Both the position numbers and the translations under genes were made by a program. The notes beneath the pieces are model-generated. The model worked only from the letters and a program-made list of their open reading frames with translations. It ran no database searches and had not been told where the DNA came from. Below, in pieces: positions 18,753-51,506 of a DNA stretch of 64,000 nt. The DNA comes from Desulfovibrio sp. (GTDB lineage: Bacteria; Bacillota; Dethiobacteria; DTU022; UBA8154). How positions within the stretch are numbered: the stretch's first letter is position 1; every line of letters begins with the position of its first letter. The stretch is taken from positions 3,734-67,733 of the forward strand of contig JAGVAS010000056.1 in NCBI GenBank assembly GCA_020060185.1. Direction: 5' to 3'.

Positions 18753-18756
18753 ATTT

Positions 18757-35308: not shown

Positions 35309-35548
35309 TTAGCTTTTATTATAAGCATCCAGAAAATCATCCCTTGAAATGCCAGCCTGAGTACAAATTGTTCGTAATGTCGATGCCTTTATTGTATTAT
35401 GGTTCGGCATTGTTAAGGGAGTCTTACTTCCATCAGGATTTTTTCTTTCCAATGAAATGTGTTCTTTTTCTCTAATTACACAAAAACCCAGAACTTCAAG
35501 TGTTTTAACTACTCTTCGTTTGGGAGCATCAACAGGAAACTTTTTCAT
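35309..35548 (-). CDS. hicA: HicA family toxin (mRNA interferase)
   Basis: 79 aa; VKTLEVLGFCVIREKEHISLERKNPDGSKTPLTMPNH..LRTICTQAGI matches the HicA/YcfA pattern. Confidence 0.7.
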   Translation of the reverse strand: MKKFPVDAPKRRVVKTLEVLGFCVIREKEHISLERKNPDGSKTPLTMPNHNTIKASTLRTICTQAGISRDDFLDAYNKS

Positions 35549-35553
35549 ATAAA

Positions 35554-35793
35554 TTATACTCCTGCTTCTGCAATAAATGCTTCAAGTACAGATGATTCAT
35601 TAATAATCACATCATCTCCAAAGGTTTCGATATGAAATTTTATTGCTGATTTTACATCTGAAAGAGCTTCTTCGTAGGTATCCCCTTGCCCTACCACTAC
35701 ACCCTTTAGTCCTAAAGGATAAGCAACATATCCATCAGAATGTTTTTCCACAATAACCTTATATTGCTTCATTAAAAAACCTCCGCATTCCAA
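35554..35793 (-). CDS. hicB: HicB family antitoxin (UPF0150)
   Basis: 79 aa; KVIVEKHSDGYVAYPLGLKGVVVGQGDTYEEALSDVKSAIKFHIE. Confidence 0.7.
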   Translation of the reverse strand: MECGGFLMKQYKVIVEKHSDGYVAYPLGLKGVVVGQGDTYEEALSDVKSAIKFHIETFGDDVIINESSVLEAFIAEAGV

Positions 35794-35873
35794 TTGTGAT
35801 ACTCTTTTTTATTATATTATAGCAAATACCTATCTTTTTTTCTACTTATTATTTTTTCGGACCTGTTAAAAGT

Positions 35874-35970
35874 AGGCAGCAAACAGGCCTGATCCGGTTA
35901 AGGAAACAGGCCTGTTTATAAGCCATACAATTTCCATTTTTTTCAGGAAAGACAGACCCCTTTTGGGAGG
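35874..35970. repeat. intergenic repeat family, copy 3 (upstream of hicB-1)
   Basis: GGCAGCAAACAGGCCTGATCCGGTTAAGGAAACAGGCCTGTTTATAAGCCATACAATTTCCATTTTTTTCAGGAAAGACAGACCCCTTTTGGGAGG. Confidence 0.6.
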
Positions 35971-36040
35971 AAGTGAAAAGAACGTTGATTGAATCTCCTG
36001 GAAAACGCTTCATTGATGACACGGAAGGACAGGACGGTGG

Positions 36041-36250
36041 TCAGTTTTCTTCCCACTCTTCTTCTAAAATTCCTGCCTGTCTTAAAATTTCTTTAATAAG
36101 GCTAACTCCAATATCGTTTCCATGCGGGTTAGGAATACGAATTTTTAAGGAAGCTTTTTTCATAAATGAGTGCTTGCCACCAGAAAATGGGCCTTTAAAG
36201 CCAAATTTCCGAAGCCCTTTAATCAGATCACGCCTTGAAATCGATTTCAT
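36041..36250 (-). CDS. hicA: HicA family toxin
   Basis: 69 aa; RDLIKGLRKFGFKGPFSGGKHSFMKK...HGNDIGVSLIKEILRQAGI. Confidence 0.75.
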   Translation of the reverse strand: MKSISRRDLIKGLRKFGFKGPFSGGKHSFMKKASLKIRIPNPHGNDIGVSLIKEILRQAGILEEEWEEN

Positions 36251-36495
36251 GTTTCTTTCACTGCTATGTTTAAATCAATACTTCTAATTAATGGCAGGGA
36301 ATCTCCATCCCTTATCTTCATTAATAACCATTCTTCTAATACTTCCTGCAATACTGCTCGACATGTTTCTAGTGTTGACTCGTTTGACCATACACCCGGG
36401 CAACTTTCAATTTCTCCAAAGAATGTTCCATCTTCAAGAATTTTATATTTCGCTTCTTCCATTGCTGCATTAATAAACTTAGTTAACATAGCCAT
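36247..36495 (-). CDS. hicB: HicB family antitoxin (start revised to MAMLTKF..)
   Basis: GGAGGT RBS 6 nt upstream of ATG at 36495; YKILEDGTFFGEIESCPGVWSNESTLETCRAVLQEVLEEWLL; consensus promoter TTGACA-18-TATAAT at 36532-36561. Confidence 0.7.
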   Translation of the reverse strand: MAMLTKFINAAMEEAKYKILEDGTFFGEIESCPGVWSNESTLETCRAVLQEVLEEWLLMKIRDGDSLPLIRSIDLNIAVKET

Positions 36496-36692
36496 AAGCT
36501 TACCTCCACTGCTAATGAATCCTATACAAATATTATAATATACGAAACAAAAGCCTGTCAAAGCAATAAAAATTAATTTAAGATAATATCAATTTCCATT
36601 TTTTACAGGATGTTTCTTCAAACTGCCCGTAATTTAAACTTAAACGGATAATAGAAACGAAATTAAAAAAAGAATCCCCGTTACCGTCTGGA

Positions 36693-37091
36693 TTAACTTT
36701 GCTCCGGGGAAACAGGCTTATACAAAAGGACTTCAGGAATAAAATTAAAGTGATGATCCAGGGAATAGACGTAAGCCCTGTTATTAATGGAAATGGCCGC
36801 AATTAATAAATCTGTCAGAGGGATTGTCAAGCCATCTTTCCTTAACCTGAATGAAATTGAGCCGGATAATCGCCAATCAGCAATGTTAGATTCAAGAAAT
36901 GGAACAGCATCTATACAACCAAGTAATCTGTCTAATTCTTGTTCTGTTTTTACTCCTTGTAAAAGTTCTGAAACGACCGGTCCTACCATATATGTTGTTC
37001 CGAGCAGTAACTCCCTATCGATAAATGCAACTATTTCAGCTTTTTTCTTAAAATATTCTATCCAGATAGAGGTATCAACTATGATCTTCAT
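36693..37091 (-). CDS. vapC: PIN-domain toxin VapC
   Basis: 132 aa; IVDTSIWIEYF...acidic residues typical of the PIN fold; overlaps the upstream antitoxin gene. Confidence 0.75.
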   Translation of the reverse strand: MKIIVDTSIWIEYFKKKAEIVAFIDRELLLGTTYMVGPVVSELLQGVKTEQELDRLLGCIDAVPFLESNIADWRLSGSISFRLRKDGLTIPLTDLLIAAISINNRAYVYSLDHHFNFIPEVLLYKPVSPEQS

Positions 37092-37314
37092 TTTCTTTTA
37101 ACTCCGCTTCTCTAAATCTTTTAACTGATTCTTCATCTATATCAAGATTGCCCTTTAAAGCCATAAAAGCTTTTATTTTTTTTAGACGGATAGCATCTTC
37201 CAGGGCATTTTCCACAGATTTGGAACGGCTTCCTGTTTTGTAGAGTCTTTCCACTTCCCTGATGATATTTTCTGAGATGTTCAATGTCGTACGCATCTTC
37301 ATCACTCCTTTCAC
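37075..37314 (-). CDS. vapB: VapB-type antitoxin
   Basis: 79 aa; MRTTLNISENIIREVERLYKTGSRSKSVENALEDAI; upstream of and overlapping vapC. Confidence 0.6.
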   Translation of the reverse strand: MKGVMKMRTTLNISENIIREVERLYKTGSRSKSVENALEDAIRLKKIKAFMALKGNLDIDEESVKRFREAELKENEDHS

Positions 37315-37413
37315 AATTATTATACACCATATTATTATGATTAATCAACTACAGGTGAACTACTCTCCAATAAATTAGTTTTTCGGACCTGGCTCTACCA
37401 ATGAAAACTTGGA

Positions 37414-37803
37414 TTAAGGTAAATATTTGCCAAACTGCCGAAAATGCTGGTCAAAGGAAACCGCATTATTTATTTTTAACCTGTCCATTATCACAAAACT
37501 TGTGGCATCAGTAAGGGGAAAATTTTTGTCCCGATACTTTTGCAATAGCTTTATTGCTTTTCTTTCGTCTTCCGGCGTAACCCATTCTACCAACCACGAA
37601 TCTACCTCTAAAAATCTCAGGGCAATTTCTCTTCCTGCACGCTGCAATAAAAGAGCATGGGTCTCAATCCTGATATAGTTCGTCATAACCAGTACGCTAT
37701 TTTCTTTTGCCAATTTTTGAAAAATTTGTTTTGCTTCTACATGATTACTATCCCTTGCATTCATAGCTGCCACTATACCGGAAGTATCCAAAAAAATCAT
37801 CAT
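37414..37803 (-). CDS. vapC: PIN-domain toxin VapC (second copy)
   Basis: 129 aa; MIFLDTSGIVAAMNARD...LTDATSFVIMD PIN motifs. Confidence 0.75.
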   Translation of the reverse strand: MMIFLDTSGIVAAMNARDSNHVEAKQIFQKLAKENSVLVMTNYIRIETHALLLQRAGREIALRFLEVDSWLVEWVTPEDERKAIKLLQKYRDKNFPLTDATSFVIMDRLKINNAVSFDQHFRQFGKYLP

Positions 37804-38063
37804 TCATCTTCCTCTGCCAAATATTTATCGTGTTCTTCGGCCAAGTTCTCGGCTCCTTTAAAACTTCCGATCAGGTTAAAAAACGTACTTTTTTCGGAGA
37901 AAACAGGAACTGTATCGTTATCTTTAATGGCCTTCATACGAATTTCGTCATTATCCAGTACAACAAATATTTTGGATCCTTTCTTTAATTCCAGCTTACC
38001 CCTGATCTCCCGGGGCAACGTCAATTGTCCCTTACTGCTCAAACGGACGATATAAGATTCCAC
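37800..38063 (-). CDS. AbrB/MazE/SpoVT-type antitoxin (start revised to GTG at 38063)
   Basis: AAGGAGGT RBS 8 nt upstream of GTG; IVRLSSKGQLTLPREIRGKLELKKGSKIFV swapped-hairpin AbrB fold motif; 4-nt overlap with vapC. Confidence 0.65.
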   Translation of the reverse strand: MESYIVRLSSKGQLTLPREIRGKLELKKGSKIFVVLDNDEIRMKAIKDNDTVPVFSEKSTFFNLIGSFKGAENLAEEHDKYLAEEDE

Positions 38064-38178
38064 GGTTAAATACCTCCTTACAAGTAAGACTATTCTTACA
38101 TGTATTATACCAGCTAAGAACAATTCATGCAACTTTAAGTATATTAAAAAGATAACAAATAAACCTGTTCCGGTTAAT

Positions 38179-38641: not shown

Positions 38642-41059
38642 ATGAATAAAGTTTTTTCGCAAAAAAAGGGCGGTTCCAGGCATTATATCCCGGCCTTTGC
38701 CACGTTTTTTATAATCCTTATTTTTTTTGCCGGTTCCTTAAGTGGCTGCGCCAGGCAACAGGCACAGTTTTTGCCGGAAATTGCCGTTATCAGTGATACC
38801 AGGCTTGTCTCACGCACAAATGAGCGCTTTTTTGAGGTGTACCGTGACGGCGAGTGGGTCCCCCTGATTGTCAAAGGGGTAAACATCGGCACCGCCCTGC
38901 CGGGAAAACACTTCACCCAGTTTCCCATGACCAGAGAGGTTTACCAAAGCTGGCTGGAGCAGGTAGCCGAGCTCAATGCCAATACAATACGTCTCTACAC
39001 GCTCCTGGATCCTCTCTTCTACCAGGCTTTTCATGAATACAACCGCTCGGCAGAGCCAGCAAAAAGGTTGTGGCTCCTGCAGGAGATCTGGCCGGAAGAA
39101 AATGTCCCCGGAAAAAACTATTTCTCTCCCGATTATATGGAGGAGTATAAGCAGGAAATCCGCCATGTGATCGATGCGCTGCATGGGTCAGCAGAAATAC
39201 GGGCGCGAAGAGGAAGAGCCTTTGGTTCTTACCGGGCTGATGTTTCACCTTACCTCCTTGGTCTGCTCATCGGCAGGGAGCTGGAGCCGGACGAAGTGCT
39301 GCACACCAACACGGTCAATAAAGATTTAAATATATATGAAGGCCGTTTTCTCCAGGCCGCAGCCGGCTCCAACTCCACCGAAGTGTGGCTCGCCATGATG
39401 TGCGATTATGCCATGGAGTATGGACAGGAGGTTTACGGGTGGCAGCAGCCCGTTTCTTTCGTCAGCTGGCCGACTCTTGACCCCCTTGAACATCCGACGG
39501 AGTGGGAGCCACATGGCCTGCCATACAACGATATGGCCGAGGTGAACCCCGCACACCTCCAGGCTGGCCCTGACAACCTGGCCGGTTTTTTCGGCTCCTA
39601 CCATATCTATCCCAACTACCCTGACTTCATGAATAATGAACCCGAATACGATAAATATGTCGATGAAGAAGGCATTTTGCGCTACGGAGGTTACCTGCGG
39701 GACTTTATGGCCGTTCACCCTCCCTACCCGGCGCTGGTGGCAGAATTTGGCATGGCTACCGGTGTGGCTACAGCGCATGTGCATCCTCATGGGTTTGATC
39801 ACGGCGGCGTATCCGAACAGCAGCAGGGTGAAATGATCGTGCGCATGTTCAAAGCCATCCTCAGAGAAGGGTATGCCGGTGGTGTCATTTTCGAGTTAAT
39901 GGACGAATGGGCGAAAAAAACCTGGATAACCGAGCCGTACATGGTGCCCTTTGAGCGAAATATTTACTGGCAAAATGCTCTCTGCCCCGAGCAAAATTAC
40001 GGCCTTCTAGCCATGGAGTCAGCAAAAGTGCCCTTTTCTGAGACAAGCCCCCTCTATAACCAGGATGTAAACTTTATGCATAAGACAGAAAATACTGTGT
40101 CACCGGAAAAAGAGCAGAAAGTGCTGGGATTAAAAAGTCTCTGGGTGGACCATAATGAGACTTATCTTTACCTCGGTTTGGAGCTGGAGACAAGCGAAAG
40201 AGCATTAACGTCCGGCAATGCAGATGCCGGCGGGCGGTTTCTGCCGCCGGGCACCGGCCTGCTCATCGGGCTTGATACCTTTGGCCCCGAACGAGGGACC
40301 AAGCGCCTTCCCATTGGAGAGGAACATTCTCCACACGGCCTGGAATTTGTTATTCTCATAACCGCAGACGAAGAGGATGCGTGTTTACTCGTCACATCTT
40401 CATACAACCGCTCTAAACATAATTATTCCTCCCCGCCAAGCAACAGTTATCAAAATAATGTTGAGGAAAAATGGGAAAGCATACGCCCTCTGGTCAACAG
40501 GGAGCGCGTAGCTGAAGACGGCACTTACTTCCCCGCCATTTACAGCAACCAGAGCATCCTGAAGGGGGGTAACTTTTACCCCGAAGGAGAAGATTATAAT
40601 TCCCTGGCCCTGTATTATGCCAACGAAGACTCAGGGAGGCTGGAGCTGCGCCTTCCCTGGGCGCTGCTCGGTTTTTCAGACCCCTCTACCCGCCAGGTAA
40701 TTGATGATCCCCGGGAGCACAGGGAAAGCCCCCTTCGCGATGCGCTGCAGACCACTACCAGCCCTGGAATATCTATCTGCGCCCTTTCCTTTTCCTTTAC
40801 CCCCGTAGAAAAAGCCGGGACCCCCTTCCGGGATATTGAGGGGATCGAGCCTGGAGAGCTGCCGGCATTAGCCTTGGACTATCTCCCGCGAAATCCTTTC
40901 GGAACCGGCTTTTCTTTAACTCTACCTTTTTATACCTGGGAATTCTGGGAAGAGCCAGATTACAGGAGCAGACACAAGAAAAGCTTTCCTATTATCAGGG
41001 ATTTCTTCTCCGCACCGGACAGCTTTTTTATAGAATACCCCAGGACCACTACAGGCTAA
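38642..41059 (+). CDS. secreted lipoprotein, clan GH-A (TIM-barrel) glycoside hydrolase family (EPS-processing hydrolase candidate)
   Basis: Start revised to MNKVF.. (GGAGG RBS 6 nt upstream); signal peptide + lipobox LSGC; VKGVNIG.. ..NTIRLY, acid/base NEP motif (FMNNEPEY) and nucleophile AEFGMATG typical of GH5-like clan A enzymes. Confidence 0.55.
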   Translation: MNKVFSQKKGGSRHYIPAFATFFIILIFFAGSLSGCARQQAQFLPEIAVISDTRLVSRTNERFFEVYRDGEWVPLIVKGVNIGTALPGKHFTQFPMTREVYQSWLEQVAELNANTIRLYTLLDPLFYQAFHEYNRSAEPAKRLWLLQEIWPEENVPGKNYFSPDYMEEYKQEIRHVIDALHGSAEIRARRGRAFGSYRADVSPYLLGLLIGRELEPDEVLHTNTVNKDLNIYEGRFLQAAAGSNSTEVWLAMMCDYAMEYGQEVYGWQQPVSFVSWPTLDPLEHPTEWEPHGLPYNDMAEVNPAHLQAGPDNLAGFFGSYHIYPNYPDFMNNEPEYDKYVDEEGILRYGGYLRDFMAVHPPYPALVAEFGMATGVATAHVHPHGFDHGGVSEQQQGEMIVRMFKAILREGYAGGVIFELMDEWAKKTWITEPYMVPFERNIYWQNALCPEQNYGLLAMESAKVPFSETSPLYNQDVNFMHKTENTVSPEKEQKVLGLKSLWVDHNETYLYLGLELETSERALTSGNADAGGRFLPPGTGLLIGLDTFGPERGTKRLPIGEEHSPHGLEFVILITADEEDACLLVTSSYNRSKHNYSSPPSNSYQNNVEEKWESIRPLVNRERVAEDGTYFPAIYSNQSILKGGNFYPEGEDYNSLALYYANEDSGRLELRLPWALLGFSDPSTRQVIDDPREHRESPLRDALQTTTSPGISICALSFSFTPVEKAGTPFRDIEGIEPGELPALALDYLPRNPFGTGFSLTLPFYTWEFWEEPDYRSRHKKSFPIIRDFFSAPDSFFIEYPRTTTG

Positions 41060-41088
41060 AAATATTAAATATAATTAAAACCACAACC

Positions 41089-41277
41089 CTCGAGACGGTC
41101 CAGGGCTGGGTCGAACAGACAGAGGAAAACGATGAATGGCTGATCATGCTTTTCCACAGGATTGAAAAACCGGCTGATTATGAGACGAAGGTAACTCCCT
41201 CAACCTTCAAGGAGATTATTGATTACCTGGCAACAACGAACGTTATAGTAGTTACCATGTCAGATGCGTTTTGAAAG
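41089..41277 (+). pseudogene. C-terminal remnant (about 62 codons) of a polysaccharide deacetylase (CE4/NodB-like) gene
   Basis: Translation ..DEWLIMLFHRIEKPADYETKVTPSTFKEIIDYLATTNVIVVTMSDAF* resembles CE4 deacetylase C-termini (..ilmHd.....t...l..iidyl...gy.fvt..e); no start codon and a stop lies immediately upstream. Confidence 0.35.
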
Positions 41278-41519
41278 TGCCACTTCCTCAAAAGAACCGC
41301 AGCCCTTTTCCCGGCGAGCATTTTTCTTGGATGCATGCACAACCAGTGCCGTCTCGTACTCCGCGGAGCTATGGAGAAAAGATTGTACCCGACTTCGCGA
41401 ACTCGCTTCGCTCGATGATTCAATGAGGAGCTCTGCCCCACTGAATTATAAGGTTTTATAATTAACTATGCTGAATTCAGCTCCCATCTATAGAAGTGGG
41501 AGACCTATTCTGGCCTTGG

Positions 41520-42386
41520 TTAAAGCTCTTCCTTCTCCCTTTTGGCCAGATGTTTGCCCCGCCAGATCAGCCATCCTGCAGCCAGAGCGGTGATAAGCCA
41601 ACCTGTGTTTACAGCGCTGCTCGAACCGTATCTCATACTGACAGCGTGCCTACCGGGCGGCAAAATTAACAGGACCAGGTTCTCATGTCTGTACGCGGTG
41701 ATGGGCTCACCATCAAGATAAACATGCCACCTAGGAGTATAGGTGACCGATATGATTACAGGTTGAGTTTCTAATGACTCATACTCGAACTCAACGCCCT
41801 TGTGATCCCAGCGCGTCCAAATAGTCTCGAAAGGCTCAGGGATTATTTCTTTTCGAGGCTTTCCAAGATCAAGAAGCGGTTCTAAAAGCCGGCGAGCTTC
41901 TTCTTTAAATTCAGGTTTAATGAGTCTTGGAATATGCAAGCCAGTAAAGTATATTTCTCCTTCCGGGATCTGCTTTACACCACAAACGGCATAAACACTT
42001 TTTTCTTCACCGAACACACCTTTTTCCTCGTCAAGGGTAAGCATTACTGAACCCAATTTTCTATAAACAGCACCTTGTCCTTCTTTTAAATGAATTAAAT
42101 GAATATCCATTTCGCTTTTATAAAAATTTGAACTCTCATCCGTGGGAACAAGGTTTACTACTCCGCTCACAGGCTTTTCAAAGCGCCACACATTAAATAT
42201 CTCCGGAATCGTGCCAGTTGCTGAAAGGTCCAGAATAACAGTTTTCCCTTTGTCTACCCACCTTTTAATACGCTTCTCCAGCTCTGCAATATTCAGTTCG
42301 GGGAGATCATACAGATAGATAACGTTAAAAAGATCGACGTATTCTTCATCATATTTCAGGGGGTTTGCCACCCTCCCCTCGGTCAC
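41520..42386 (-). CDS. C-terminal extracytoplasmic domain + TM anchor paralog of the PTPS-related membrane protein (3' part of a frameshift-split gene)
   Basis: 288 aa; NVIYLYDLPELNIAELEKRIKRWVDKGKTVILDLSATG parallels SVILYGAKWSSKTRAEQVILDYAASG in 48045..51506, and the C-terminus ..DGEPITAYRHENLVLLILPPGRHAV parallels ..NGEPWPYEIYENLLRLKIPAGDHEI. The ORF continues upstream without a start (..EEAAINYVARLFPWVTEG) to a stop in the +1 frame relative to 42412..44130. Confidence 0.6.
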   Translation of the reverse strand: MTEGRVANPLKYDEEYVDLFNVIYLYDLPELNIAELEKRIKRWVDKGKTVILDLSATGTIPEIFNVWRFEKPVSGVVNLVPTDESSNFYKSEMDIHLIHLKEGQGAVYRKLGSVMLTLDEEKGVFGEEKSVYAVCGVKQIPEGEIYFTGLHIPRLIKPEFKEEARRLLEPLLDLGKPRKEIIPEPFETIWTRWDHKGVEFEYESLETQPVIISVTYTPRWHVYLDGEPITAYRHENLVLLILPPGRHAVSMRYGSSSAVNTGWLITALAAGWLIWRGKHLAKREKEEL

Positions 42387-42411
42387 CCACGGAAAGAGCC
42401 GCGCTACGTAA

Positions 42412-44130
42412 TTAATAGCTGCTTCTTCCTATAACAAGCACGTCGGAATGCAGCTTCATGAAATAGGTGGAAGGGTGATCCGTAGTGACTACCACAGCAT
42501 CTTCATTTTGAGCCAGATACGACCAATCATTCAGGTAGAGATAATCCGACATACTCTGGAGAAAATCATAACCGCGGTCTAGAACAACTGCTCGTGTGTT
42601 CCACAAATACCAATTTCTCAGCATGTACTGATAATAGCCTTCATGGTAGGCGATGTTATGATTGACAAGGGTATAAGAATGAACAGTGCCTTCAATATTC
42701 CAACCAATTGAAGTGTTGAACCCATATTTAACCGGGAAAAAGGCCATTTCTCCACCCGAATGTGGGAGTTCTGCAGTAAGGCGACCCTTTTCAAACGGAT
42801 TTTTTCCGGTTGTCGGGACAGCATCAATAAGAAACCGTAATCTAGCATAGTCTGAAGGTGGGTTGAGAGGAACGAGGGGAGAAGATACAATAATGATTAT
42901 TACGATGACAATCGCAGGGACAATGCCAAGGGATTTCTTTATATCGGGATCTTTAAACCATCCGGTAAAAACTCTAGCAACCCCCTGAGCAAAAAAACTT
43001 ACCAGTATCGCCGCAGGGAGATCCGCAGCATGTAAAAAACGTAGAGGCACCAAGCTCTTTTCTCCCAGCGGCAAGAGCAAGTAAATTGGATTTTTCGGCC
43101 CTAAAGTTAAAGATGTTGTCACTACCCATACAACTACTAGCCCTAACCAGATAAAACGATCTTTATAAAAAAGAAACCCTAACAGTGCACCAAGAAGGGT
43201 TAGAAAAAAATAATAGAAATAAGGGGACCCAGGGTTTAAAAAAAAATCAACCGTAAGCATACTTTCGGCCCCCCGCGGCAGTGGCCAGGGAACACCCGGG
43301 GTTTCCCACTGGAAAACTCCTGGTACAGCCCAGAAGCCAGTCAAAGCTATACCTGTTAAAGCAGCTTCCGCAATTAAGATCAACCTTTTCCAATATAAAG
43401 GTAATTTCAGGCGCCAGATCATACAAAACAATACAACCCCGGCAAATTGTATATAAGCATGCATAGCATGAGTCATGGCCAGTAATGCCATATAAATGCA
43501 GGAGTATAGCCAGTTGCGGGTGCATGGTTTTTCGCATAAATTTATCATTTGCGCAAGTAAAAGGGGATAAAGAGGGAGAGAGAGCGCCCTTCCCAATGTT
43601 CCATCAATGAAAACTGACGAAAGGGTGTAATGACTGAGAGAGTACAGGAGTGCAGCATTTATTCCAACAACAACATCTCCACCCAGTTTCTTTGCAAGCT
43701 GGGCTGTAAAAAGGCCACCCAGGAAGAGGGATACCCAAGTAAACACTTTAAAAGTCATCATAATATTTCCAGTAAGAAGTTGTATAAAGGCGCCAACCCA
43801 TTTGCTTAAAGGAGGGTAGTACTGAACGAGGGTTGAGCCCATGTACCACTCCGGAAACCAATCGGAAAACTGCAGGTGACGCCAGCGCTCCGCCAGGTAC
43901 TCAACCTTGGTCAGGTGGCCCAACGTGTCAACGCCGGTTGGGAAAAGATCGTTAGAGGCACTTAAAATTGGCCACATGACAACAGTGCAGGCAATTGCTA
44001 TTATTGGTACTACATAGTGCCAGTATAGCACATCGGAGTTTAGTAAGGATTTATTACTCTTTAGCTCCCGTTTGTTAAATTGAACTGATAGATTTTTAGA
44101 AGCATCCATGGTAATTTTCTCCTGCTGCAT
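42412..44130 (-). CDS. polytopic membrane domain paralog of the PTPS-related membrane protein (5' part of the frameshift-split gene; lacks DivIVA and PTPS-like domains)
   Basis: 572 aa; SNDLFPTGVDTLGHLTKVEYLAERW parallels PWGSDAWGHLLKAEFLYEQ in 48045..51506; ends ..DVLVIGRSSY* exactly where the fused paralog continues ..DVLVIGEYAPTIALMF. Confidence 0.6.
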   Translation of the reverse strand: MQQEKITMDASKNLSVQFNKRELKSNKSLLNSDVLYWHYVVPIIAIACTVVMWPILSASNDLFPTGVDTLGHLTKVEYLAERWRHLQFSDWFPEWYMGSTLVQYYPPLSKWVGAFIQLLTGNIMMTFKVFTWVSLFLGGLFTAQLAKKLGGDVVVGINAALLYSLSHYTLSSVFIDGTLGRALSLPLYPLLLAQMINLCEKPCTRNWLYSCIYMALLAMTHAMHAYIQFAGVVLFCMIWRLKLPLYWKRLILIAEAALTGIALTGFWAVPGVFQWETPGVPWPLPRGAESMLTVDFFLNPGSPYFYYFFLTLLGALLGFLFYKDRFIWLGLVVVWVVTTSLTLGPKNPIYLLLPLGEKSLVPLRFLHAADLPAAILVSFFAQGVARVFTGWFKDPDIKKSLGIVPAIVIVIIIIVSSPLVPLNPPSDYARLRFLIDAVPTTGKNPFEKGRLTAELPHSGGEMAFFPVKYGFNTSIGWNIEGTVHSYTLVNHNIAYHEGYYQYMLRNWYLWNTRAVVLDRGYDFLQSMSDYLYLNDWSYLAQNEDAVVVTTDHPSTYFMKLHSDVLVIGRSSY

Positions 44131-44220
44131 ATACAGTGCAGCAACAATACCAATAAAATACCAATAAAGTGTTAGTAAGCGTTTAAAGGCGGTTTCGGTA
44201 AAAATTCTTCCGTGATGACG

Positions 44221-44586
44221 TTACTGCTGTAGAAAAAAAACACCTATACTAACAAGGACCATTCCGATAACCTTTGTTAGAGTAACTGTTTCCTTAAAAA
44301 GTAAAACAGAAAATACAAATACAATAATATAAGATAAACTGATACTGGGGTAAGCTTTACTTAGTTCCATGGTCGATATTACTTTAATCCACAGGATCAT
44401 GCTTGCAACAAAAAAACAAATGCCAGTTATTATCCACGGGCTGCGGAAAATATTTAAAAGTGTAAAAGGAATCGCTGACCACTCCAGATTAATCTCACCC
44501 ATTCTCTCTGTTGCGTATTTCAGCAAGATTTGACCGGATGCCCCCAGGAAAATGGCAATAAATAGTAACATCAAACTGGATTTCAA
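44221..44586 (-). CDS. 4-TM EamA/SMR-like small membrane protein (putative lipid-linked sugar flippase), copy B
   Basis: 121 aa; paralog of 28537..28914 (ASGQILLKYA, KVISTMELSKAYP). Confidence 0.55.
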   Translation of the reverse strand: MKSSLMLLFIAIFLGASGQILLKYATERMGEINLEWSAIPFTLLNIFRSPWIITGICFFVASMILWIKVISTMELSKAYPSISLSYIIVFVFSVLLFKETVTLTKVIGMVLVSIGVFFLQQ

Positions 44587-44654
44587 ATGTTTTACCCCTT
44601 TCTGTTTTAGAAATATACAGCTACAGCAGAATTGTTTTTAAGACTGCTGCTATG

Positions 44655-45437
44655 TTAAGAAATCCGCAGCCCTTTTCCCAGCGGACATTTTTCTTTTGGG
44701 AGCGTGCACAGTTTGAGACTGTCACGTATTGTGGCTGCAATGCCAAGTTTACTGCGGCTTTTCTTGCGGTTGTACTGCAGCACCATGGGAACCTCACTTA
44801 TTTTCCGGCAAAGGGTTGCCAGCTTTAACAGAAGCTCAACAGTTGCCGAAAAGGTGCTGGACACCAGTAAGGAGCCATCAACTCTGTTACAGGCATTTTT
44901 TATCAGTTCTGCCCTGTAAGCACGAAAATTAACGGTGTAATCGCTTACGCCGGCAAGAGGAAAAATCAGGCCATAGTATTTCCTTGCCCCAAAGCTTAAA
45001 AGGCGGCGAAAAAAGGGGACCCCTACCTGCCCTCCACCCTTGGTGAAACGGGAGGCAATCGCTATTTCTGCTCCGTTCAGGACTGTCTTTACCAGAGCGC
45101 CGATGAGTTCGCCGGGGTGGGTGGCATCAGCGTCCATGGTCACGATACACGAAGCATTCATCCTTACGGCCTCGTAAAAACCCGTCAAGATAGCCTGTCC
45201 CAAGCCTTTATTTTCTGTATGAGACAGTATTGTAACCTTGGAATCAGCTTTTGCCCACTCTATAACTTTCTGCAGAGTTGCATCCCTGCTCCCGTCATTA
45301 ATGATAATTATGCGGTAATCGCATCCTTTAGGCAGTGATATGCCGCACTCAAACATGCTGCGCAGCGCCGGAACAGACAGCTCCTCGTTATACATGGGTA
45401 AAATTATAGCAACGAGTCTCTCTATCAACTTTATCAC
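44655..45437 (-). CDS. GT2 polyprenyl-phosphate glycosyltransferase (DPM1/ArnC-like), copy B
   Basis: 260 aa; same motifs as copy A. Confidence 0.8.
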   Translation of the reverse strand: MIKLIERLVAIILPMYNEELSVPALRSMFECGISLPKGCDYRIIIINDGSRDATLQKVIEWAKADSKVTILSHTENKGLGQAILTGFYEAVRMNASCIVTMDADATHPGELIGALVKTVLNGAEIAIASRFTKGGGQVGVPFFRRLLSFGARKYYGLIFPLAGVSDYTVNFRAYRAELIKNACNRVDGSLLVSSTFSATVELLLKLATLCRKISEVPMVLQYNRKKSRSKLGIAATIRDSLKLCTLPKEKCPLGKGLRIS

Positions 45438-45449
45438 CTCATTGACAAG

Positions 45450-46850
45450 TCAGTTTACAACCCGCTTTCCACCTTTGCTTATTTTAGATTTTCCGGGAGA
45501 GGTAAAGAGAGTTTTCAGTGAAAGATGATATTCTCTAAAAACATCCTTGAGCTGGGCAACAGGGTTTTCCACCCTCCAGCTTTTGGCTTCCGTTAAAACC
45601 AAGATTATCCCGGCCAGCCTGAACCAGTAAACGAGATACCTGAAAAAAGGAACTAAAAAAACTATCCACCAAATTTTTTTCACGTCTTTTTTGAAGTCTT
45701 CCGGACTGGCCCTGTAGTATACGAGCAGGCTGAGAGCATCCAAAAGAAAGTAGCAGAAAAAAAGTATGGCTATGAAGAAAAATACAGTTTGCAATGCATA
45801 ACCCAAGAAGTAGAGAAAAAAGATTAAAAATGTCCAGGTGAGCCGGGTGAGAGCCAGCGTATGATCAGTGAGGAACATACGGCCTATATAATCCCACAAT
45901 TTTAATGCCGGGCCCTTGCTCCCCGCCGAATGGATGGCCACTGTTTCTATTTCTCCCCGCTGCCAGCGCGCCCTTTGGGCATACAAGCTTGCAAGTGACT
46001 TGACTGGCTCAACGTAAGCAACTGAGTCCAAAATAGCTCCCACGCGGTATTTCTTTTGGGGAGAGACTTTTTTGATCTGAAAAGTCAGGTCGGTATCTTC
46101 GGACACGGTGCGCTCCTGGTACATGAATGACTGCATAAGTACATCCCGCCGGAATGCAGAGAAGGCGCCGGAGAGGGTAAACAGAGTGTTCTTAATGTCC
46201 TGGTAACGGCGGCCAATATTAAAAGCAAGCATATACTCTACGACTTCACAGTAGTTAATAATATCCATGAAGGAAAAACCTTTTCCCAGCTCTTTATCTA
46301 CCCTGATATAACCTGTCGCAGCAGCCAGTGTGCTGTCTTCTTCAAAAGTCCGGGCTACCTTCATAAGGGCTTCCTCGTCCAGCCAGGCGTCGGAATCCAC
46401 GTTTATAATATAAGTGCCTTGGGCTGAATAAATCCCCGCATTTAAAGCAATTGATTTGCTGGGCCTATTAAGGGAGATCCAGAGGGTATTAATTTCGGGG
46501 TGAGCAAATTGAAAGCGCTGAAAAACTTCAAAACTGTTGTCCTGGCTGCCGTTGTTGACACAGATAATCTGTATTTTTTCCTTTGGGTAGTTCTGCATAT
46601 AAATTGACTCCAGACATTTAAAAAGCGTTTTCTCGGAGTTGTAAACAGGAACAATAACGGTTATAAACGGCTGATGAAGCTCGCAGCTCAGCGGTGGGTC
46701 TTGTTTTTCTCTCTTCGAATGAACATAAAGGCCCCAAAAACAGTTTACTGCCGCGGATACATCCACCAGGAGCGGGGCAAGCAGCCAGATGCCCCAGAAA
46801 AGTATAAAACGAAGAGAAATATCCCATAAAACTTCAGGCATTTTCAACAT
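45450..46850 (-). CDS. processive GT2 beta-glycan synthase (QxxRW), copy B
   Basis: 466 aa; ITVIVPVYNSE, NVDSDAW, SEDTD, QRARWQRGEIE. Confidence 0.8.
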   Translation of the reverse strand: MLKMPEVLWDISLRFILFWGIWLLAPLLVDVSAAVNCFWGLYVHSKREKQDPPLSCELHQPFITVIVPVYNSEKTLFKCLESIYMQNYPKEKIQIICVNNGSQDNSFEVFQRFQFAHPEINTLWISLNRPSKSIALNAGIYSAQGTYIINVDSDAWLDEEALMKVARTFEEDSTLAAATGYIRVDKELGKGFSFMDIINYCEVVEYMLAFNIGRRYQDIKNTLFTLSGAFSAFRRDVLMQSFMYQERTVSEDTDLTFQIKKVSPQKKYRVGAILDSVAYVEPVKSLASLYAQRARWQRGEIETVAIHSAGSKGPALKLWDYIGRMFLTDHTLALTRLTWTFLIFFLYFLGYALQTVFFFIAILFFCYFLLDALSLLVYYRASPEDFKKDVKKIWWIVFLVPFFRYLVYWFRLAGIILVLTEAKSWRVENPVAQLKDVFREYHLSLKTLFTSPGKSKISKGGKRVVN

Positions 46851-48048
46851 CCTCCTTGACTCTTACCAATGTGGGCCGCGTCATGAGATGCCAGTAAATC
46901 AGCACAATAAAAAAGAAAAAGAGAATACGCCCAAACAGGGTATGGGCCAGAAAATTAAAATTCCTGCCGAAGCTGTAAATAATAGCTACAATTATCATCA
47001 AGCGCACCATGTTAAAAGAAAGCAGCGCAGCGACCCCTACCAATGAATAAAGAATTCTTTTGGAAAGCCTGCAGACAGGATAAAAGAGGATCAAGCCTAA
47101 AAAAACACCGATCTCCAGGATGCCTGAGCTTTCAATATCTATGTCTATTGTTGTCCAGCTTTCATCGATCTTGATAAACACCAGGATTGTGCCAGGAGCT
47201 TTATCAAAAACAAAGGTTATAATATCAAAATAATTCAGTAAATGGTGGAGAGCCAGGCCGGTCAGGTGCTCGATACGGTACTCTAGAAGCGAGCCACGGA
47301 AAAGCAGAATAAACAGGAAAGTAAAGCCTACCGCGCTCCATATGTAATAGAAAAGCCAGATACGGTGCCGGTATAGTATAAATGAACCTGTCAGCCAGCA
47401 CAGGGCCAGAAATGTTATCCATATCCTGTTCCTTACGACAACTGGAAATGGTTTCCATTGAATATCTCCTTCCGAGGGGATTCGGTCGTCTTGAAGAACG
47501 GCAGTGGAAAGATAAAACCTGATATACTGGGCGGGGTAGACATGGAGGTCGGCCATGGGAATACTAAATTCAAAGCAGCTGCCGCCGCTTATGGACCCTT
47601 CTCCCCAGTCCCCCTCGTAGGTAGAAAGCAGCTTTCCCTGTGACGAGTACAGCTCTACAAGCACTTCCCCTGTATCATAAGTCGGTTCATACAATACTTT
47701 CGCAAACTTGTCAATGGCGTTATTATAGCTGCCGTTATCGTTAATATCCAAATTAAGCCTGCACACATAGCTGCTCCCTTCTTTAACTGGCTCGCGCAGC
47801 TCTACCATGAAATAGAGGATTCTTTCATTTTCATTGGTTCCCCAGGACATTGATTTAAGTCTTCTGCTTTTTGAAGCGTCGTCTTTAAAGTCGATGTGGT
47901 AGGAAGTGCGCCCTTTCCAGTCGTCAAATTGCCCGTCCAGCCGTATTTTTTGTAGAAATAAAGACCCCGGGGGCCACAGTAATATTAGCGCCACACATAT
48001 TGCCGTTATGATAAAATAAAAAAGGCGCATATCAGATCCTAACCTCAC
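46834..48048 (-). CDS. membrane protein partner of the GT2 synthase: N-terminal TM + roughly 190 aa extracytoplasmic domain + C-terminal 6-TM domain; family unknown
   Basis: 404 aa intact; translationally coupled to the upstream (4-nt overlap) and downstream (17-nt overlap) genes; C-terminal FNMVRLMII...NFNFLAHTLFGR motif. Confidence 0.5.
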   Translation of the reverse strand: MRLGSDMRLFYFIITAICVALILLWPPGSLFLQKIRLDGQFDDWKGRTSYHIDFKDDASKSRRLKSMSWGTNENERILYFMVELREPVKEGSSYVCRLNLDINDNGSYNNAIDKFAKVLYEPTYDTGEVLVELYSSQGKLLSTYEGDWGEGSISGGSCFEFSIPMADLHVYPAQYIRFYLSTAVLQDDRIPSEGDIQWKPFPVVVRNRIWITFLALCWLTGSFILYRHRIWLFYYIWSAVGFTFLFILLFRGSLLEYRIEHLTGLALHHLLNYFDIITFVFDKAPGTILVFIKIDESWTTIDIDIESSGILEIGVFLGLILFYPVCRLSKRILYSLVGVAALLSFNMVRLMIIVAIIYSFGRNFNFLAHTLFGRILFFFFIVLIYWHLMTRPTLVRVKEDVENA

Positions 48049-51000
48049 AGTTTCTTACGAATGTAAAAAAAGCCGTATCCGAGACACAAAAGGGAAAGCA
48101 CGGATAGGACCGCTCCCCAGCGATAGACAGGCGGCCTTTCCAGGTAGATTATGATTTCATGATCGCCGGCGGGGATTTTCAGCCTCAGCAGGTTTTCATA
48201 AATTTCGTAAGGCCAGGGCTCCCCGTTTATCTTCACCTTCATCCCATCAAGGGCGGCGACGGGAACGATCACATCAACATCATTCTCGACGCTGCAGGTC
48301 ATTACATAACCGTCCTCGCTGGCCTGGTAATTGAGCAGCGGTATAAGCGAAACAGGAGCATATTCCGTCCTTAATGCGAAAATATCTTTCAGGAGCTCCA
48401 AGACCAGAGCATCCTTTGTTAAAAAGGTATGGTAGGGCAGGTTCCCGCCTAAAAAGTGGATTTTCCTGCTCTTTATCAGCCTGCTCCCGTAAACGGGCGC
48501 GCTCATCCCGAAATATTCAAATTCAAGCTCTACTTCATCCAACCCCTGAAGCACCCAGGCTTTCCAGACATCAATATCCTCGAGAAAAAAAGGCTCCAGA
48601 AGGTATCTTTCGCCTTTCCGCCCCATGAGTTCCAGCTGGCCCCGGAGAGTAACCAGCTCACCGTAAACTTCCAAAAACTCCGGCTGCCTGGCCAGTATAT
48701 CTTCCTGCATCCCGGTAAGCTCGACAAACACCTCTCCTCCAGAAGCGGCATAATCCAGGATTACCTGTTCCGCTCTTGTCTTGGAGGACCATTTTGCCCC
48801 GTACAGGATAACACTGCTGTACCTTTTCAGCTTTTCGGGGTCATAGCTGTCAATATAGGTAGAAACGCCCATCTCTACATTGGGAAACATCAGGGCGATC
48901 GTTGGAGCATACTCGCCGATGACAAGGACGTCATCCTGCACCTCAACCAGGTAGGGTATGTCGATACCGGCATGCCAGATGCTGATCCCGTCTATTGTTA
49001 CAATATGGCTGTATCCGGCTTTTTCCGCTTCAAATGAAAAAGCCTGCGGATCCTTGATTACATCGTCCTTTACAAGCAAATCGGTCGCCCCCAAAAGAAC
49101 ACACGACCGAAACAAAAAAGGATAATACTGGAATTCCAAACCCGTGTTAATGAGCATGATATTGGGGGAGGTGGTAGCGCCCTGCCAGGCCCACCCAAAT
49201 ACCTGCTCTCTTCCTGATTGTTCTGCAAAAAGATATGAAGGGGTGGAACCGAGCCTGCTTAAATCTATAGTTGCTACGCGCCAGCCCGGGGTTGCCTGTA
49301 ATATCTCTGCGCTCTCGATCAATTTAGGGGCTCTCGCGGAGGTATGGGCAAGCAGGCGCACGGAAAAAAAAGAGTCCATCAAAAATGCCGCTGAAAGCAT
49401 AATAACAACAACAGGCCCCGCTTTGCTAAAAGGAAATCGAAATGGAAAGGCCCATTTTTTGACTGGGGAAAAAGCCAGGCTGGAAGCAATAACAGAGAGT
49501 GCCGCAAAGCCGGCAAAGTAATGCGGCCACAGCAGGTGGCTTAAGGGAAGGAGTAAATATAAAAGCCGCAGTGAAGGAAAAGTGAATGCTATTAAGATTG
49601 CTCCGCAAATGGCCAGGCTTTTGGCCCACGGCGGTTTTGAACGCCAGGTCAAGATAATAAGGGTTAGGGCAAAAATAATGCTGATTCCCCAGTAAAAAGC
49701 CTCCCGGTTAGCAAAACGATAAAAGGGATCTAGAGATATCGCTGCCGGAATGAGATTTTCGACTACATAAGCTTTTACCGCCTCAGCGTTGATCCCGGTA
49801 ATACCGCCGACAAGGGCCGGCAGCAGCCACCACCCTGTCGAAAGAACTCCTATAGCAATTACCAAAACTCCTCTCGAAAAATCTCTTAGTCGGCAGCCGC
49901 TCAAGAACCAAAGGAAAAAAGCAAAAAGTCCCAGGGAGATAGAAAAAATCGCTCCAAACATGGCATGCGTGAGAATAACCCCGTGCAAAAGAGCGACAAA
50001 AATAATGATGTTGGAAAAAGACCTTTTTTCTTCAATTACTTTTAAAAAGAAGGCAAACAAAAGGGGCAGCAAAGCTGCGGCCAGAACACGGGGGAGGTTT
50101 CCTTCTGAGAAGGCAACACGCACGTTATCGATCCAAACGCTCCAGATTATACCCGCCAGCGTTGCCGCAAAAAGCCCTATGCGGTTGGCCCAAAAAAGCC
50201 ACGCCAGCCCTCCGCCAAGAGCACAGGCAAAAATAAAGTAATTTCCCGCCATGAAAATGTCAGCGCTGAAGGAACGCAACAAGGCCAACAAGTAATAAGG
50301 AAGAGGGGCCCAATAGCGAAAAGGTTGAACTCCGTTGTACCAATACTCAGTAAATTGGGGAAAATAGCTGCCTTTGAGGATCTGTTCGTACAGAAACTCT
50401 GCTTTCAAAAGATGCCCCCAGGCATCAGAACCCCACGGGTAATGAAGCCTGAATTGGGGCGTGAGAACATAATAATAGGCAAGGAAAGCCAGCAGGCTAA
50501 TTATCAGTGCGGATACGATATAATGGTGAACAGCATATCTGTAAAAAACCTGTCCGGAAAGTCTTTTGTCAGGTTGTTTGACAGGAATGGCATCCTTTAA
50601 ACCGTCCTCGACGGCAGTATCTGCTTTTAAACTGCTTTCGACGGCCGCGGCAATTTCCCTGCGGTAATCTGAACTTTCCGCACTTTCCCTGCTGCTTTCC
50701 GCCAGGGAATCAAGTGCGGTATTACGGTTGCTTACTTCTATTCCGCGGAGAGGCGTTTCCCAGAGACTAATACTGTCAAGCCCCAATTTTAACCCAGATA
50801 GTGCATCTTCCAGCCGGTTGTAAAAGTACATGGCCATATTCTCTGTCGTGGGTTGGAAAATATTGAAAGGATGAATTTCATTCAGAATTTTATCTTCATA
50901 TTGTCCAAAAACAGACTTGATACAATCTACAATGGTGGCAAAGGGTATTGGTTCATCATTTTCACTGGAAGGAATATCAACTTTCAAATGGACCTGCCAG

Positions 51001-51506
51001 GAGTGAGCATGAACCGGACCGGCTTTTTCGGTAAACGAAACATAATGGCGGGCATTAAGAAAAGAAACCAGCTGGATAGAGTAAGCCTTGGATTCAGCAA
51101 GGGGCTTCGGTTCCCAGGGGGAGGAGACAATTTCCTTTTTACTGCCTGAAATTTCTAATTCTGGCCCGATTTCCTCAGCCAATTGTTTATTTTGCTCTGC
51201 TGATACTTTGTTTAGAATTTCCCGTTCCATGGATGAAAGTTCGTTGTTTAACCGGGCGATTTCATCCTCAACAATCTGCAATTCTATTTTTTTTGAAGCA
51301 ACTATAGCTTCCGCTTCAGATATGATGCGCCGTGCCTTAGCCCGGGCATTATCTTCCATCTCTTTTGCCACCCTGATGCTTTGAGCAAGCGAACGCTGGA
51401 CATTTAAAAAATGGGATTCATTTGCAGCAATTATCGCCTTTAACTCGGTGACCTGCAGCTCGTACTTTTTTATCTTGCCCAGTAACCCCTGAAGTTCTTC
51501 GCGCAA
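48045..51506 (-). CDS. multidomain fusion: DivIVA-like coiled coil + QueD/6-pyruvoyl-tetrahydropterin-synthase-like domain + roughly 12-TM domain (PTPS-related membrane protein architecture) + C-terminal extracytoplasmic domain + TM anchor; putative GT-C-like glycosyltransferase
   Basis: 1153 aa. Residues about 1-110 are a coiled coil similar to DivIVA at 51897..52427. Residues about 150-250: FNARHYV..GPVHAHSWQV...LNEIHPFNIFQPTTENMAMYFYNRL aligns to QueD FEAAHRL..CGRLHGHSF...[20 protein letters not shown], keeping the His ligands but losing the catalytic Cys. After that come multiple TM helices and a soluble C-terminal domain. Confidence 0.7.
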   Translation of the reverse strand: MREELQGLLGKIKKYELQVTELKAIIAANESHFLNVQRSLAQSIRVAKEMEDNARAKARRIISEAEAIVASKKIELQIVEDEIARLNNELSSMEREILNKVSAEQNKQLAEEIGPELEISGSKKEIVSSPWEPKPLAESKAYSIQLVSFLNARHYVSFTEKAGPVHAHSWQVHLKVDIPSSENDEPIPFATIVDCIKSVFGQYEDKILNEIHPFNIFQPTTENMAMYFYNRLEDALSGLKLGLDSISLWETPLRGIEVSNRNTALDSLAESSRESAESSDYRREIAAAVESSLKADTAVEDGLKDAIPVKQPDKRLSGQVFYRYAVHHYIVSALIISLLAFLAYYYVLTPQFRLHYPWGSDAWGHLLKAEFLYEQILKGSYFPQFTEYWYNGVQPFRYWAPLPYYLLALLRSFSADIFMAGNYFIFACALGGGLAWLFWANRIGLFAATLAGIIWSVWIDNVRVAFSEGNLPRVLAAALLPLLFAFFLKVIEEKRSFSNIIIFVALLHGVILTHAMFGAIFSISLGLFAFFLWFLSGCRLRDFSRGVLVIAIGVLSTGWWLLPALVGGITGINAEAVKAYVVENLIPAAISLDPFYRFANREAFYWGISIIFALTLIILTWRSKPPWAKSLAICGAILIAFTFPSLRLLYLLLPLSHLLWPHYFAGFAALSVIASSLAFSPVKKWAFPFRFPFSKAGPVVVIMLSAAFLMDSFFSVRLLAHTSARAPKLIESAEILQATPGWRVATIDLSRLGSTPSYLFAEQSGREQVFGWAWQGATTSPNIMLINTGLEFQYYPFLFRSCVLLGATDLLVKDDVIKDPQAFSFEAEKAGYSHIVTIDGISIWHAGIDIPYLVEVQDDVLVIGEYAPTIALMFPNVEMGVSTYIDSYDPEKLKRYSSVILYGAKWSSKTRAEQVILDYAASGGEVFVELTGMQEDILARQPEFLEVYGELVTLRGQLELMGRKGERYLLEPFFLEDIDVWKAWVLQGLDEVELEFEYFGMSAPVYGSRLIKSRKIHFLGGNLPYHTFLTKDALVLELLKDIFALRTEYAPVSLIPLLNYQASEDGYVMTCSVENDVDVIVPVAALDGMKVKINGEPWPYEIYENLLRLKIPAGDHEIIIYLERPPVYRWGAVLSVLSLLCLGYGFFYIRKKL

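Follow-up and report, generated by a model that had tools for sequence, protein, structure and literature searches.

The locus described here lies within a 64-kb stretch of bacterial DNA on contig JAGVAS010000056.1 (the window) and consists of a tightly packed minus-strand operon, in the order I-H-G-F-E-D-C/B from 52427 to 41520, together with the lipoprotein gene A (Table 1). A promoter-like site stands upstream of I (52670..52642, minus strand). A first-pass annotation of the sequence had described positions 38642-48048 as a candidate exopolysaccharide module reminiscent of poly-N-acetylglucosamine (PNAG) loci, and all of its open reading frames (ORFs) are present at or near the positions it gave. 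Profile matches identify the locus as an exosortase G (XrtG) system, a type known from comparative genomics, and not as a PNAG (ica/pga) locus. This assignment follows from the matches of F, H, and G to TIGR03111, TIGR03112/PF10131, and TIGR03110/TIGR04178, and from homologs of G and of F that carry XrtG or XrtG-associated labels in JGI and NCBI records. On the same reading, positions 38642-48048 are the distal two-thirds of the system, and the predicted functional unit reaches upstream through H to the first gene, I, at 52427. The most unusual feature, missed in the earlier annotation, is that G fuses a sortase to its presumed substrate domain and has lost the catalytic Cys; the point worth following is the substrate-fused, Cys-less exosortase clade to which it belongs.

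Window proteins were mapped onto a comparison set of 80 loci from species-representative genomes, fetched with a glycosyltransferase family 2 (GT2) profile; locus counts rest on the 61 loci with at least 6 kb of upstream sequence. The XrtG domain stands directly before the GT2 gene in 61/61, a PTPS domain occurs in 60/61, PF10131 in 58/61, and the ectodomain in 54/61. H, which adjoins XrtG in 58-60 of these loci, is by these counts part of the universal core, with D (19/61), E (29/61), C (9/61), and A (9/61) as accessory genes. One scan of species-representative genomes confirmed 449 GT2 relatives, and XrtG systems range from lactobacilli to syntrophs and Chloroflexota. We found no functional study of XrtG, the TIGR models, or PF10131 in the searchable literature, in which the sole mention of the system was its transcriptional induction in Lactiplantibacillus plantarum (PMC12854382).

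We regard the locus as a variant of the catalogued XrtG system (TIGR03110, TIGR03111, TIGR03112, TIGR04145, NF045489) whose function we infer. The two share a PTPS/PF10131 protein, XrtG, and then a GT2 in the same adjacency, and an ectodomain related to the Firmicu-CTERM target. They differ in that target domain and sortase form one polypeptide here, that the Cys is replaced by S, N, T, R, or H across a monophyletic clade, and that G falls under the TIGR03110 cutoff with an extension lacking an NF045489 match. The present locus also has an extra GH-A lipoprotein (once fused to CE4), an ArnC-like GT2, an ArnE/F-like flippase, a second GT-C protein, and DivIVA-like elements both as a separate gene and as a coil on H.

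Table 1. Genes and features of the XrtG-type locus and its second copy, in window positions.
Feature	Position	Strand	Remarks
Second, decayed paralogous module copy (A', E', D', F', G', H', I' pieces)	26800..34170		blocks ~80% identical in nucleotides to copy 1
A, lipoprotein gene	38642..41059	+	convergent to minus-strand operon
Tail of deleted CE4 domain, 78 codons open, out of frame with A	41038..41274	+	homology to L081
B, part of split GT-C gene	41520..42386	-	
C, part of split GT-C gene	42412..44130	-	PF10131
D, ArnF/ArnE-like	44221..44586	-	
E, soluble GT2	44655..45437	-	
F, multi-TM GT2 synthase	45450..46850	-	TIGR03111
G, 404-aa fused protein	46834..48048	-	TIGR03110 + TIGR04178 + TIGR04145 (weak)
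Exosortase active-site motif I-E-S307-S-G in G, Cys replaced	47122..47136	-	translation
Relic sorting signal inside G: PFPVV-VRNR, TM helix, YRHR basic patch	47356..47451	-	translation
G ectodomain, aa ~35-205	47434..47946	-	AlphaFold2 β-sandwich; invariant residues
H, DivIVA-like coil + PTPS-related + PF10131 + C-terminal TM	48045..51506	-	
I, DivIVA-like coiled-coil protein, first gene of operon	51897..52427	-	PF05103

The start of the G ORF overlaps the stop of H, with M7 at 48030 as the probable true start, and the start of F overlaps G by 17 nt (8 nt if F begins at M4), in keeping with the translational coupling proposed for this protein and the synthase. In an AlphaFold2 (AF2) model of G (pLDDT 78.5), a helix at the N-terminus leads into a β-sandwich (48-198) that is followed by six helices, and a β-hairpin precedes the active-site motif; this is the layout that had been read from the sequence as a transmembrane (TM) segment, an outside domain, and six further TM segments. 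The best exosortase family for G is TIGR03110 (XrtG), on which aa 211-396 score 90.9 bits against a cutoff of 102.75; for comparison, the fused homolog of Syntrophomonas wolfei scores 103.1 and stand-alone sisters 108-111. The broader exosortase/archaeosortase signature TIGR04178 is passed with 44.3 bits (cutoff 23), and database searches returned 36 homologs of ~400 aa at 42-83% identity, several of them annotated XrtG. G is thus, on family matches, an exosortase/archaeosortase-superfamily protein, most probably of the XrtG family; the earlier view that it is no IcaD, PgaD, or BcsB agrees with this, and the view that it is a novel kind of protein does not.

The ectodomain of G, which carries the conserved motifs LDGxFxDW and DxNxNGxYxxxxDK, is homologous to separately encoded ~230-aa proteins of other loci, and its aa 35-171 match the Firmicu-CTERM target family TIGR04145 weakly (21.2 bits, cutoff 50). 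The internal signal of G aligns with the C-terminal tripartite signal of these stand-alone homologs, and sequence comparison shows that the N-terminal half of G shares ancestry with the 'target' protein that sister loci encode as its own gene, with a C-terminal anchor. A stand-alone gene for a Firmicu-CTERM-type target was not found within the window. Foldseek comparison of the G model with the PDB gave no significant match (best E 0.035, generic β-sandwiches), leaving a CBM9/DOMON-like guess for the ectodomain unsupported.

In the alignment, E306, S308, N346, R349, H369, and G373-R374 of G are invariant or nearly so; within the G family, N346-x-x-R349 is nearly invariant and G373-R374 invariant. 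The critical residues of archaeosortase ArtA are Cys173, Arg214, and Arg253 (PMC9263693). Equivalents of the two Arg, assigned from motif order and not from structure, are retained in G as N..R349 and G-R374, whereas that of Cys173 is absent (IESSG in G, IECSG in stand-alone sisters), so the transpeptidase or protease chemistry as known would not be possible. With ArtA/PGF-CTERM and XrtA/PEP-CTERM, G otherwise shares a homologous polytopic membrane fold (TIGR04178), linkage to exopolysaccharide (EPS) genes, and the tripartite signal of motif, TM helix, and basic cluster, although this signal is internal in G and not C-terminal.

In many Bacillota loci and all Chloroflexota loci, adjacent but separate genes encode an ectodomain protein of at least ~230 aa and an XrtG of ~200 aa. 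At the C-terminus of the stand-alone ectodomain proteins, GDIQWSP[IA][PS] is followed by a hydrophobic helix and then by clustered R/K residues before the stop codon; in one of them (L064) this signal scores above the cutoff of TIGR04174 (IPTL-CTERM). In Bacillota, XrtGs encoded on their own have the motif IECSG and exceed the TIGR03110 cutoff. Ectodomain and XrtG form one ORF in the window and in 24 loci, all of which read IE[S/N/T/R/H]SG with Cys in none. Among fused database homologs (the 36 homologs plus a representative-library search that contributed one cluster), the Cys position holds S in 20, N in 15, and T in 1, and Cys is absent in 37 database sequences. In a neighbor-joining tree of XrtG domains, with identical sequences counted once, the 23 non-identical fused sequences form one clade that has no stand-alone member and is nested among Cys-bearing Bacillota XrtGs. 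The sorting signature SP[IA]P has become PFP in the fused forms, and a basic VRNR/VKSR patch before the TM helix occurs in these forms only. The same architecture is found in the isolate genome of S. wolfei and in assemblies of Desulfosporosinus, Pelotomaculum, and Dethiobacter. These sequences are most simply read as the outcome of one fusion event in which the nucleophile was lost; the position would then have drifted while the pocket was kept.

Further fusions were seen in the system. A 1564-aa ORF of a Pelotomaculum assembly (L038, 5323-10014) joins H, ectodomain, and XrtG; H is fused to the ectodomain in Chloroflexota, Thermincola, and Ktedonobacterales assemblies (L045, L060, L065). P0281 combines a DivIVA coil, PTPS, and a Cys-less XrtG, and P0333 an XrtG with a long repeat tail.

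F carries the motifs of processive β-glycan synthases that had been noted from its sequence, with D104, D152-S-D154, E251-D252 (SED), and Q292-R-A-R-W296 invariant among 14 homologs and hydrophobic N- and C-terminal segments in a multi-TM arrangement. Its best NCBIfam family is TIGR03111, the XrtG-associated GT2 (374.4 bits, cutoff 363.95), which does not place it in a non-processive GT2 subfamily. The next-best named families are PgaC_IcaA (TIGR03937, an equivalog), on which F stays below the cutoff with 131.3 against 422.3 bits, and NodC (62 bits); in Pfam it matches GT2 families, and Chitin_synth_2 weakly. These matches support F as a processive-type, PgaC/NodC-like GT2 synthase.

The core protein H has a PTPS-related domain at aa ~147-255 (TIGR03112, 72.4 bits, cutoff 69.35; PF01242, 59.8 bits), a PF10131 membrane domain at aa 396-1026 (513 bits), and a C-terminal TM helix. 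Its PTPS-related domain (48700..49150) keeps H-x-H and an upstream His (ARH ... VHAH); inspected by eye, it shows no apparent counterpart to the Cys that QueD/PTPS enzymes have four residues ahead of the HGH motif. The split gene C encodes a second GT-C paralog (PF10131, 164 bits) without a PTPS domain, and PF10131 belongs to Pfam clan GT-C, CL0111 (PMC7801869). The first-loop motif of H is YPWGSDAWGHLLK, and the form common to H and C is YPxxxDxxGHxxK, with the Asp invariant in 73/73 homologs. H and C would therefore both be GT-C family members with a conserved acidic residue in the predicted first extracytoplasmic loop. The first gene product, I, scores 39.7 bits on PF05103 (DivIVA), and a homolog stands upstream of H in 20/61 related loci, all Bacillota.

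E, D, and C/B plausibly form a lipid-linked-sugar branch. E matches PF00535 (79.6 bits), and its best NCBIfam matches are PgfS, ArnC, PpgS, and dolichyl-P-hexose transferase, all far under their equivalog cutoffs. The best of these, which NCBIfam names just 'glycosyltransferase PgfS', we take to be part of the Streptococcus mutans protein-glycosylation system. D is a 4-TM, SMR/EamA-like protein (PF00892/PF00893 matches) that stays under both equivalog cutoffs for ArnF (NF002816, 68.7 bits, cutoff 99) and ArnE (31.3 bits, cutoff 92); it resembles ArnF/ArnE without being a member and is a putative lipid-linked-sugar flippase. C and B are one gene split by a frameshift near 42418-42425, where the tblastn frame changes at residue ~558-560, and intact homologs of 860-900 aa occur in five loci (L007, L014, L015, L020, L076). 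Of the polyprenyl-phosphate-sugar trio proposed earlier, the GT2 synthase and the SMR-type flippase stand as described, as does the GT-C assignment, with the correction that the GT-C gene is broken into C and B. The joint presence of a GT2, a small 4-TM flippase, and GT-C proteins (E, D, C/B plus H) is shared with ArnC-ArnE/F-ArnT, CsbB-GtcA-YfhO, GtrA-GtrB-Gtr*, and PgfS-PgfM. The GT-C proteins here differ from those of the three-component systems in belonging to PF10131, a family without a characterised member, and H differs further in its cytoplasmic PTPS-like domain and coiled coil.

A is an 805-aa protein with an LSGC lipobox and more than 1,400 database homologs. Neither Pfam nor NCBIfam gave a family match, and sequence searches of PDB chains with A alone or with a 65-sequence profile gave chance matches alone. 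An AF2 model built from the 65 sequences (pLDDT 87.4, pTM 0.89) has a (β/α)8 barrel at aa ~75-460 followed by C-terminal β-sandwich domains, and its best Foldseek matches in the PDB are barrels of families GH157, GH2, GH5, and GH72 (E 4e-12 to 1e-7, prob 1.0). We confidently predict from this model that A is a clan GH-A barrel, which bears out the secreted GH-A lipoprotein of the earlier description. R212-E213 follows the strand 205-210 and E368 lies inside the strand 364-369; both Glu are invariant in the 65 sequences and, at the canonical β4 and β7 positions of the clan, are the candidate catalytic residues. A shares with clan GH-A (the GH157 endo-β-1,3-glucanase 9g5g, GH2 β-glucuronidases, GH5 mannanases) the barrel, E213 after β4, E368 in β7, clustered Tyr and His residues after β6, and a Trp following β8. 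It differs in its 9-16% identity, in R-E instead of the usual N-E at β4, in having no Pfam or NCBIfam family, and in that its own family often adjoins or is fused with GT2 synthases or CE4.

The C-terminal CE4 fragment reported just downstream of A is real: its frame ends ...LIMLFHRI...VVTMSDAF*. Pfam gave no match to the 78-aa relic, which is the part after PF01522 and includes an LxH-like 'LFH'. An ortholog 79% identical to A (P0158, on contig L081) continues into CE4 (PF01522, 51.8 bits), with the CE4 core lying between the A domain and a tail homologous to the relic; DNA alignment to L081 indicates that ~480 nt of this core are missing from the window. L081 itself keeps the core and has a 1-nt frameshift just before the LxH tail (3205-3444). 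This makes the ancestral protein one of GH-A plus CE4, with CE4 decaying in this lineage. The L081 contig is labelled Syntrophales, with Bacillota relatives, and a Tn5-type transposase/DruA-like gene (5537-7839) adjoins its PF10131 gene. A CE4 protein adjoins the A homolog in L018, and A-family domains occur as C-terminal fusions to PgaC-like GT2s in P0241, P0249, P0252, and P0272 (1220-1244 aa); these fusions and CE4 neighbours tie the family to GT2-made, probably acetylated, polymers.

We consider it fairly probable that F exports a glycan, that G serves as its non-catalytic partner, that E, D, and the GT-C proteins decorate the product, and that A trims it. F would polymerise and export a β-linked glycan, probably containing N-acetylhexosamine (HexNAc), a polymer type suggested by the PgaC/IcaA/NodC-like synthase and by the CE4 and GH partners. 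G would have ceased to cut and would hold its β-sandwich ectodomain beside the synthase; the helix that once served for sorting may remain bound in an exosortase groove that retains the Arg and His residues. E would make a polyprenyl-phosphate sugar, D would flip it, and the sugar would be transferred outside the membrane, onto the polymer or the ectodomain, by the GT-C proteins, of which H is the constant and C/B the accessory one. A, a predicted retaining GH-A hydrolase once fused to a CE4 deacetylase, would trim or release the polymer. Neighbouring cyclic di-GMP (c-di-GMP) genes suggest use of the polymer as a biofilm or adhesion matrix.

More tentatively, we propose that an exosortase may have turned pseudo-enzyme after head-to-tail fusion with its substrate gene, the helix becoming permanently docked and the ectodomain a fixed extracellular subunit of a PgaC-like synthase complex, in a Bacillota lineage of Syntrophomonadaceae, Peptococcaceae, Dethiobacter, and relatives. 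The variant is a natural experiment in which the presumed substrate was fused to the sortase, the nucleophile drifted, and the rest of the pocket was kept, and this combination argues that selection maintains proximity of the ectodomain to the synthase, not cleavage. If the pseudo-enzyme proposal is true, the Firmicu-CTERM protein of all XrtG systems would act at the synthase, and XrtG cleavage would be only a positioning or release step. The fused variant also offers a simple and testable handle on what the XrtG system does. Two protein families stand out besides: a large one of GH-A-fold lipoproteins that neither Pfam nor NCBIfam covers and that is tied to GT2 synthases and CE4, and PF10131, an uncharacterised GT-C family always found paired with an exosortase.

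Several points weigh against this picture. N-terminally extended XrtGs of other lineages, P0388 and P0416, keep the Cys (DYECSG); fusion does not by itself force Cys loss, and we reject it alone as the rule. P0416 matches NCBIfam NF045489, 'XrtG N-terminal extension', so the extension itself is already known at annotation level, although the extension of G does not match that model. In two clades of Chloroflexota XrtGs encoded on their own, a Ser is conserved where the Cys would be, which makes a Ser nucleophile conceivable in principle. The score of G lies under the trusted cutoff of TIGR03110 and its ectodomain matches TIGR04145 weakly. The C/B frameshift, the CE4 deletion, and a degenerate second copy of the module are signs of decay, and the organism may have lost the function of part of the pathway; alternatively, assembly errors could account for the frameshifts, the contig (listed as a 69.8-kb JGI contig) being probably metagenomic. 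Finally, the searchable literature held no bench characterisation of any XrtG-system component, and we infer which polymer is made, what the GT-C proteins glycosylate, and what G does.

The conserved Ser of the Chloroflexota clades, which stand beside normal CTERM-bearing targets, bears on whether G is still an enzyme, with S307 or the invariant S308 as a nucleophile that cuts its own internal signal in cis and releases the ectodomain or transfers it to polymer, lipid, or cell wall. The internal motif-TM-basic signal is still in place in G, the pocket residues E306, S308, G309, N346, R349, H369, and R374 are conserved, and the fused, Cys-keeping P0388 and P0416 could self-process. We nevertheless think an active G unlikely: position 307 varies among S, N, T, R, and H within the fused clade, the pattern expected of a dispensable residue, and S308 is also present in Cys-bearing ECSG enzymes, so that its conservation is no evidence of a new role. 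The change of SP[IA]P to PFP and the insertion of the VRNR/VKSR patch before the TM helix, both confined to fused forms, point the same way. A different emphasis would make the system mainly one of protein glycosylation and anchoring, in which H and C/B O-glycosylate the G ectodomain in the manner of PMT/TMTC or PgfS-PgfM and the GT2 builds a lipid- or protein-linked glycan instead of free EPS. It would suit the co-occurrence of ectodomain and GT-C in almost every locus, sometimes as fusions (L045, L060, L065, and with XrtG too in L038), the best NCBIfam match of E to PgfS, and the relation that PF10131 bears to protein glycosyltransferases of the PMT, STT3, and TMTC kinds (PMC7801869). F, with the full multi-TM QxxRW architecture of polymer-exporting synthases, and the GH-A hydrolase and CE4 domain, which point to a polysaccharide substrate, speak against it, and the ectodomain, read by eye, has no evident glycosylation sequon or Ser/Thr-rich tract; we judge it rather improbable.

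A PNAG-type (ica/pga-like) locus with a new synthase partner and extra polyprenyl-phosphate-sugar decoration, as first envisaged, has in its favor the PgaC_IcaA and NodC families as next-best matches of F, the fusion of some A-family proteins to PgaC-like GT2s, and CE4 and GH partners that resemble PgaB/IcaB logic. PgaABCD/IcaADBC systems likewise pair a PgaC/IcaA-like multi-TM QxxRW GT2 with a small set of membrane partners, and PgaB (CE4 plus GH153) and the ancestral A (GH-A plus CE4) are alike in combining deacetylase and hydrolase. We hold such a locus to be very unlikely, however, since F is no PgaC/IcaA equivalog yet exceeds the TIGR03111 cutoff, its partner is an exosortase-family protein and not a new family, and the universal core holds an exosortase and a PTPS/GT-C protein, the latter without a counterpart in PNAG loci. 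No IcaD or PgaD model of Pfam or NCBIfam matched genes A-I (38.6-52.4 kb), and no PgaA is present there. The hydrolase, moreover, is of another fold family and in the opposite domain order to that of PNAG systems, and its CE4 domain is deleted in the window and frameshifted in the closest ortholog. The CE4 deletion, together with the C/B frameshift, could also mean that the locus is a decaying relic that no longer works as a system in this organism, as could a second copy in which G' is frameshifted and H' and A' are partly deleted, and the toxin-antitoxin genes and low-GC spacer between the copies. Copy 1, by contrast, has full-length I, H, G, F, E, D, and A; alignments of G, F, and A with homologs at 37-88% identity show dozens of invariant residues kept, and H retains the residues of the GT-C loop that vary little or not at all among 73 homologs. 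The same fused architecture recurs in S. wolfei, Desulfosporosinus, Pelotomaculum, and Dethiobacter, and a defunct locus is the account we find hardest to credit.

In the second copy, F' (28899..30287; TIGR03111, 374.1 bits), E' (27748..28521), and D' (28537..28914) are intact, and the GT2 and flippase genes stand in the opposite order to that of copy 1. The frameshift in G' falls precisely on the active-site motif (30585..31493 + 30277..30546), H' lacks ~1 kb, A' is in fragments, and I' is down to 169 nt. The spacer between the copies (34177..38100) has a GC content of 36-38% and carries genes for PilZ (34177..34695), a HicB/UPF0150-like antitoxin (36247..36561), and PIN toxins (36693..37091 and 37414..37803). 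The PilZ gene was a conserved XrtG neighbour in 0/80 loci.

c-di-GMP-related proteins in the neighbourhood comprise EAL-HDOD, PilZ, HD-GYP-type, and GGDEF proteins, and together with a nearby Tad pilus these genes fit an adhesion or biofilm-matrix role. No c-di-GMP riboswitch or other known RNA was found upstream of the XrtG operon (51.4-53.3 kb) or in the spacer region (33.2-38.7 kb) at E ≤ 0.1. Elsewhere in the window, c-di-GMP-I riboswitches lie on the minus strand at 24731..24818 and 26548..26634 (86 and 75 bits); the first precedes a gene for a Tad-pilus ATPase, the second the EAL-HDOD gene. The Tad/Flp-type pilus locus (8530..24631, minus strand) encodes T2SSE ATPases, two T2SSF proteins, and TadE/G-like, VWA, and response-regulator-ParA/BcsQ-like proteins, and its 700-aa ORF at 22529..24631 joins a TadA/CpaF-like ATPase to a C-terminal CpaB-like region. 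An 846-aa protein encoded at 60874..63414 (minus strand) combines a SelA-like domain (L-seryl-tRNA selenium transferase family) with PAS, GGDEF, and HD-GYP-type HD_5 domains, in that order.

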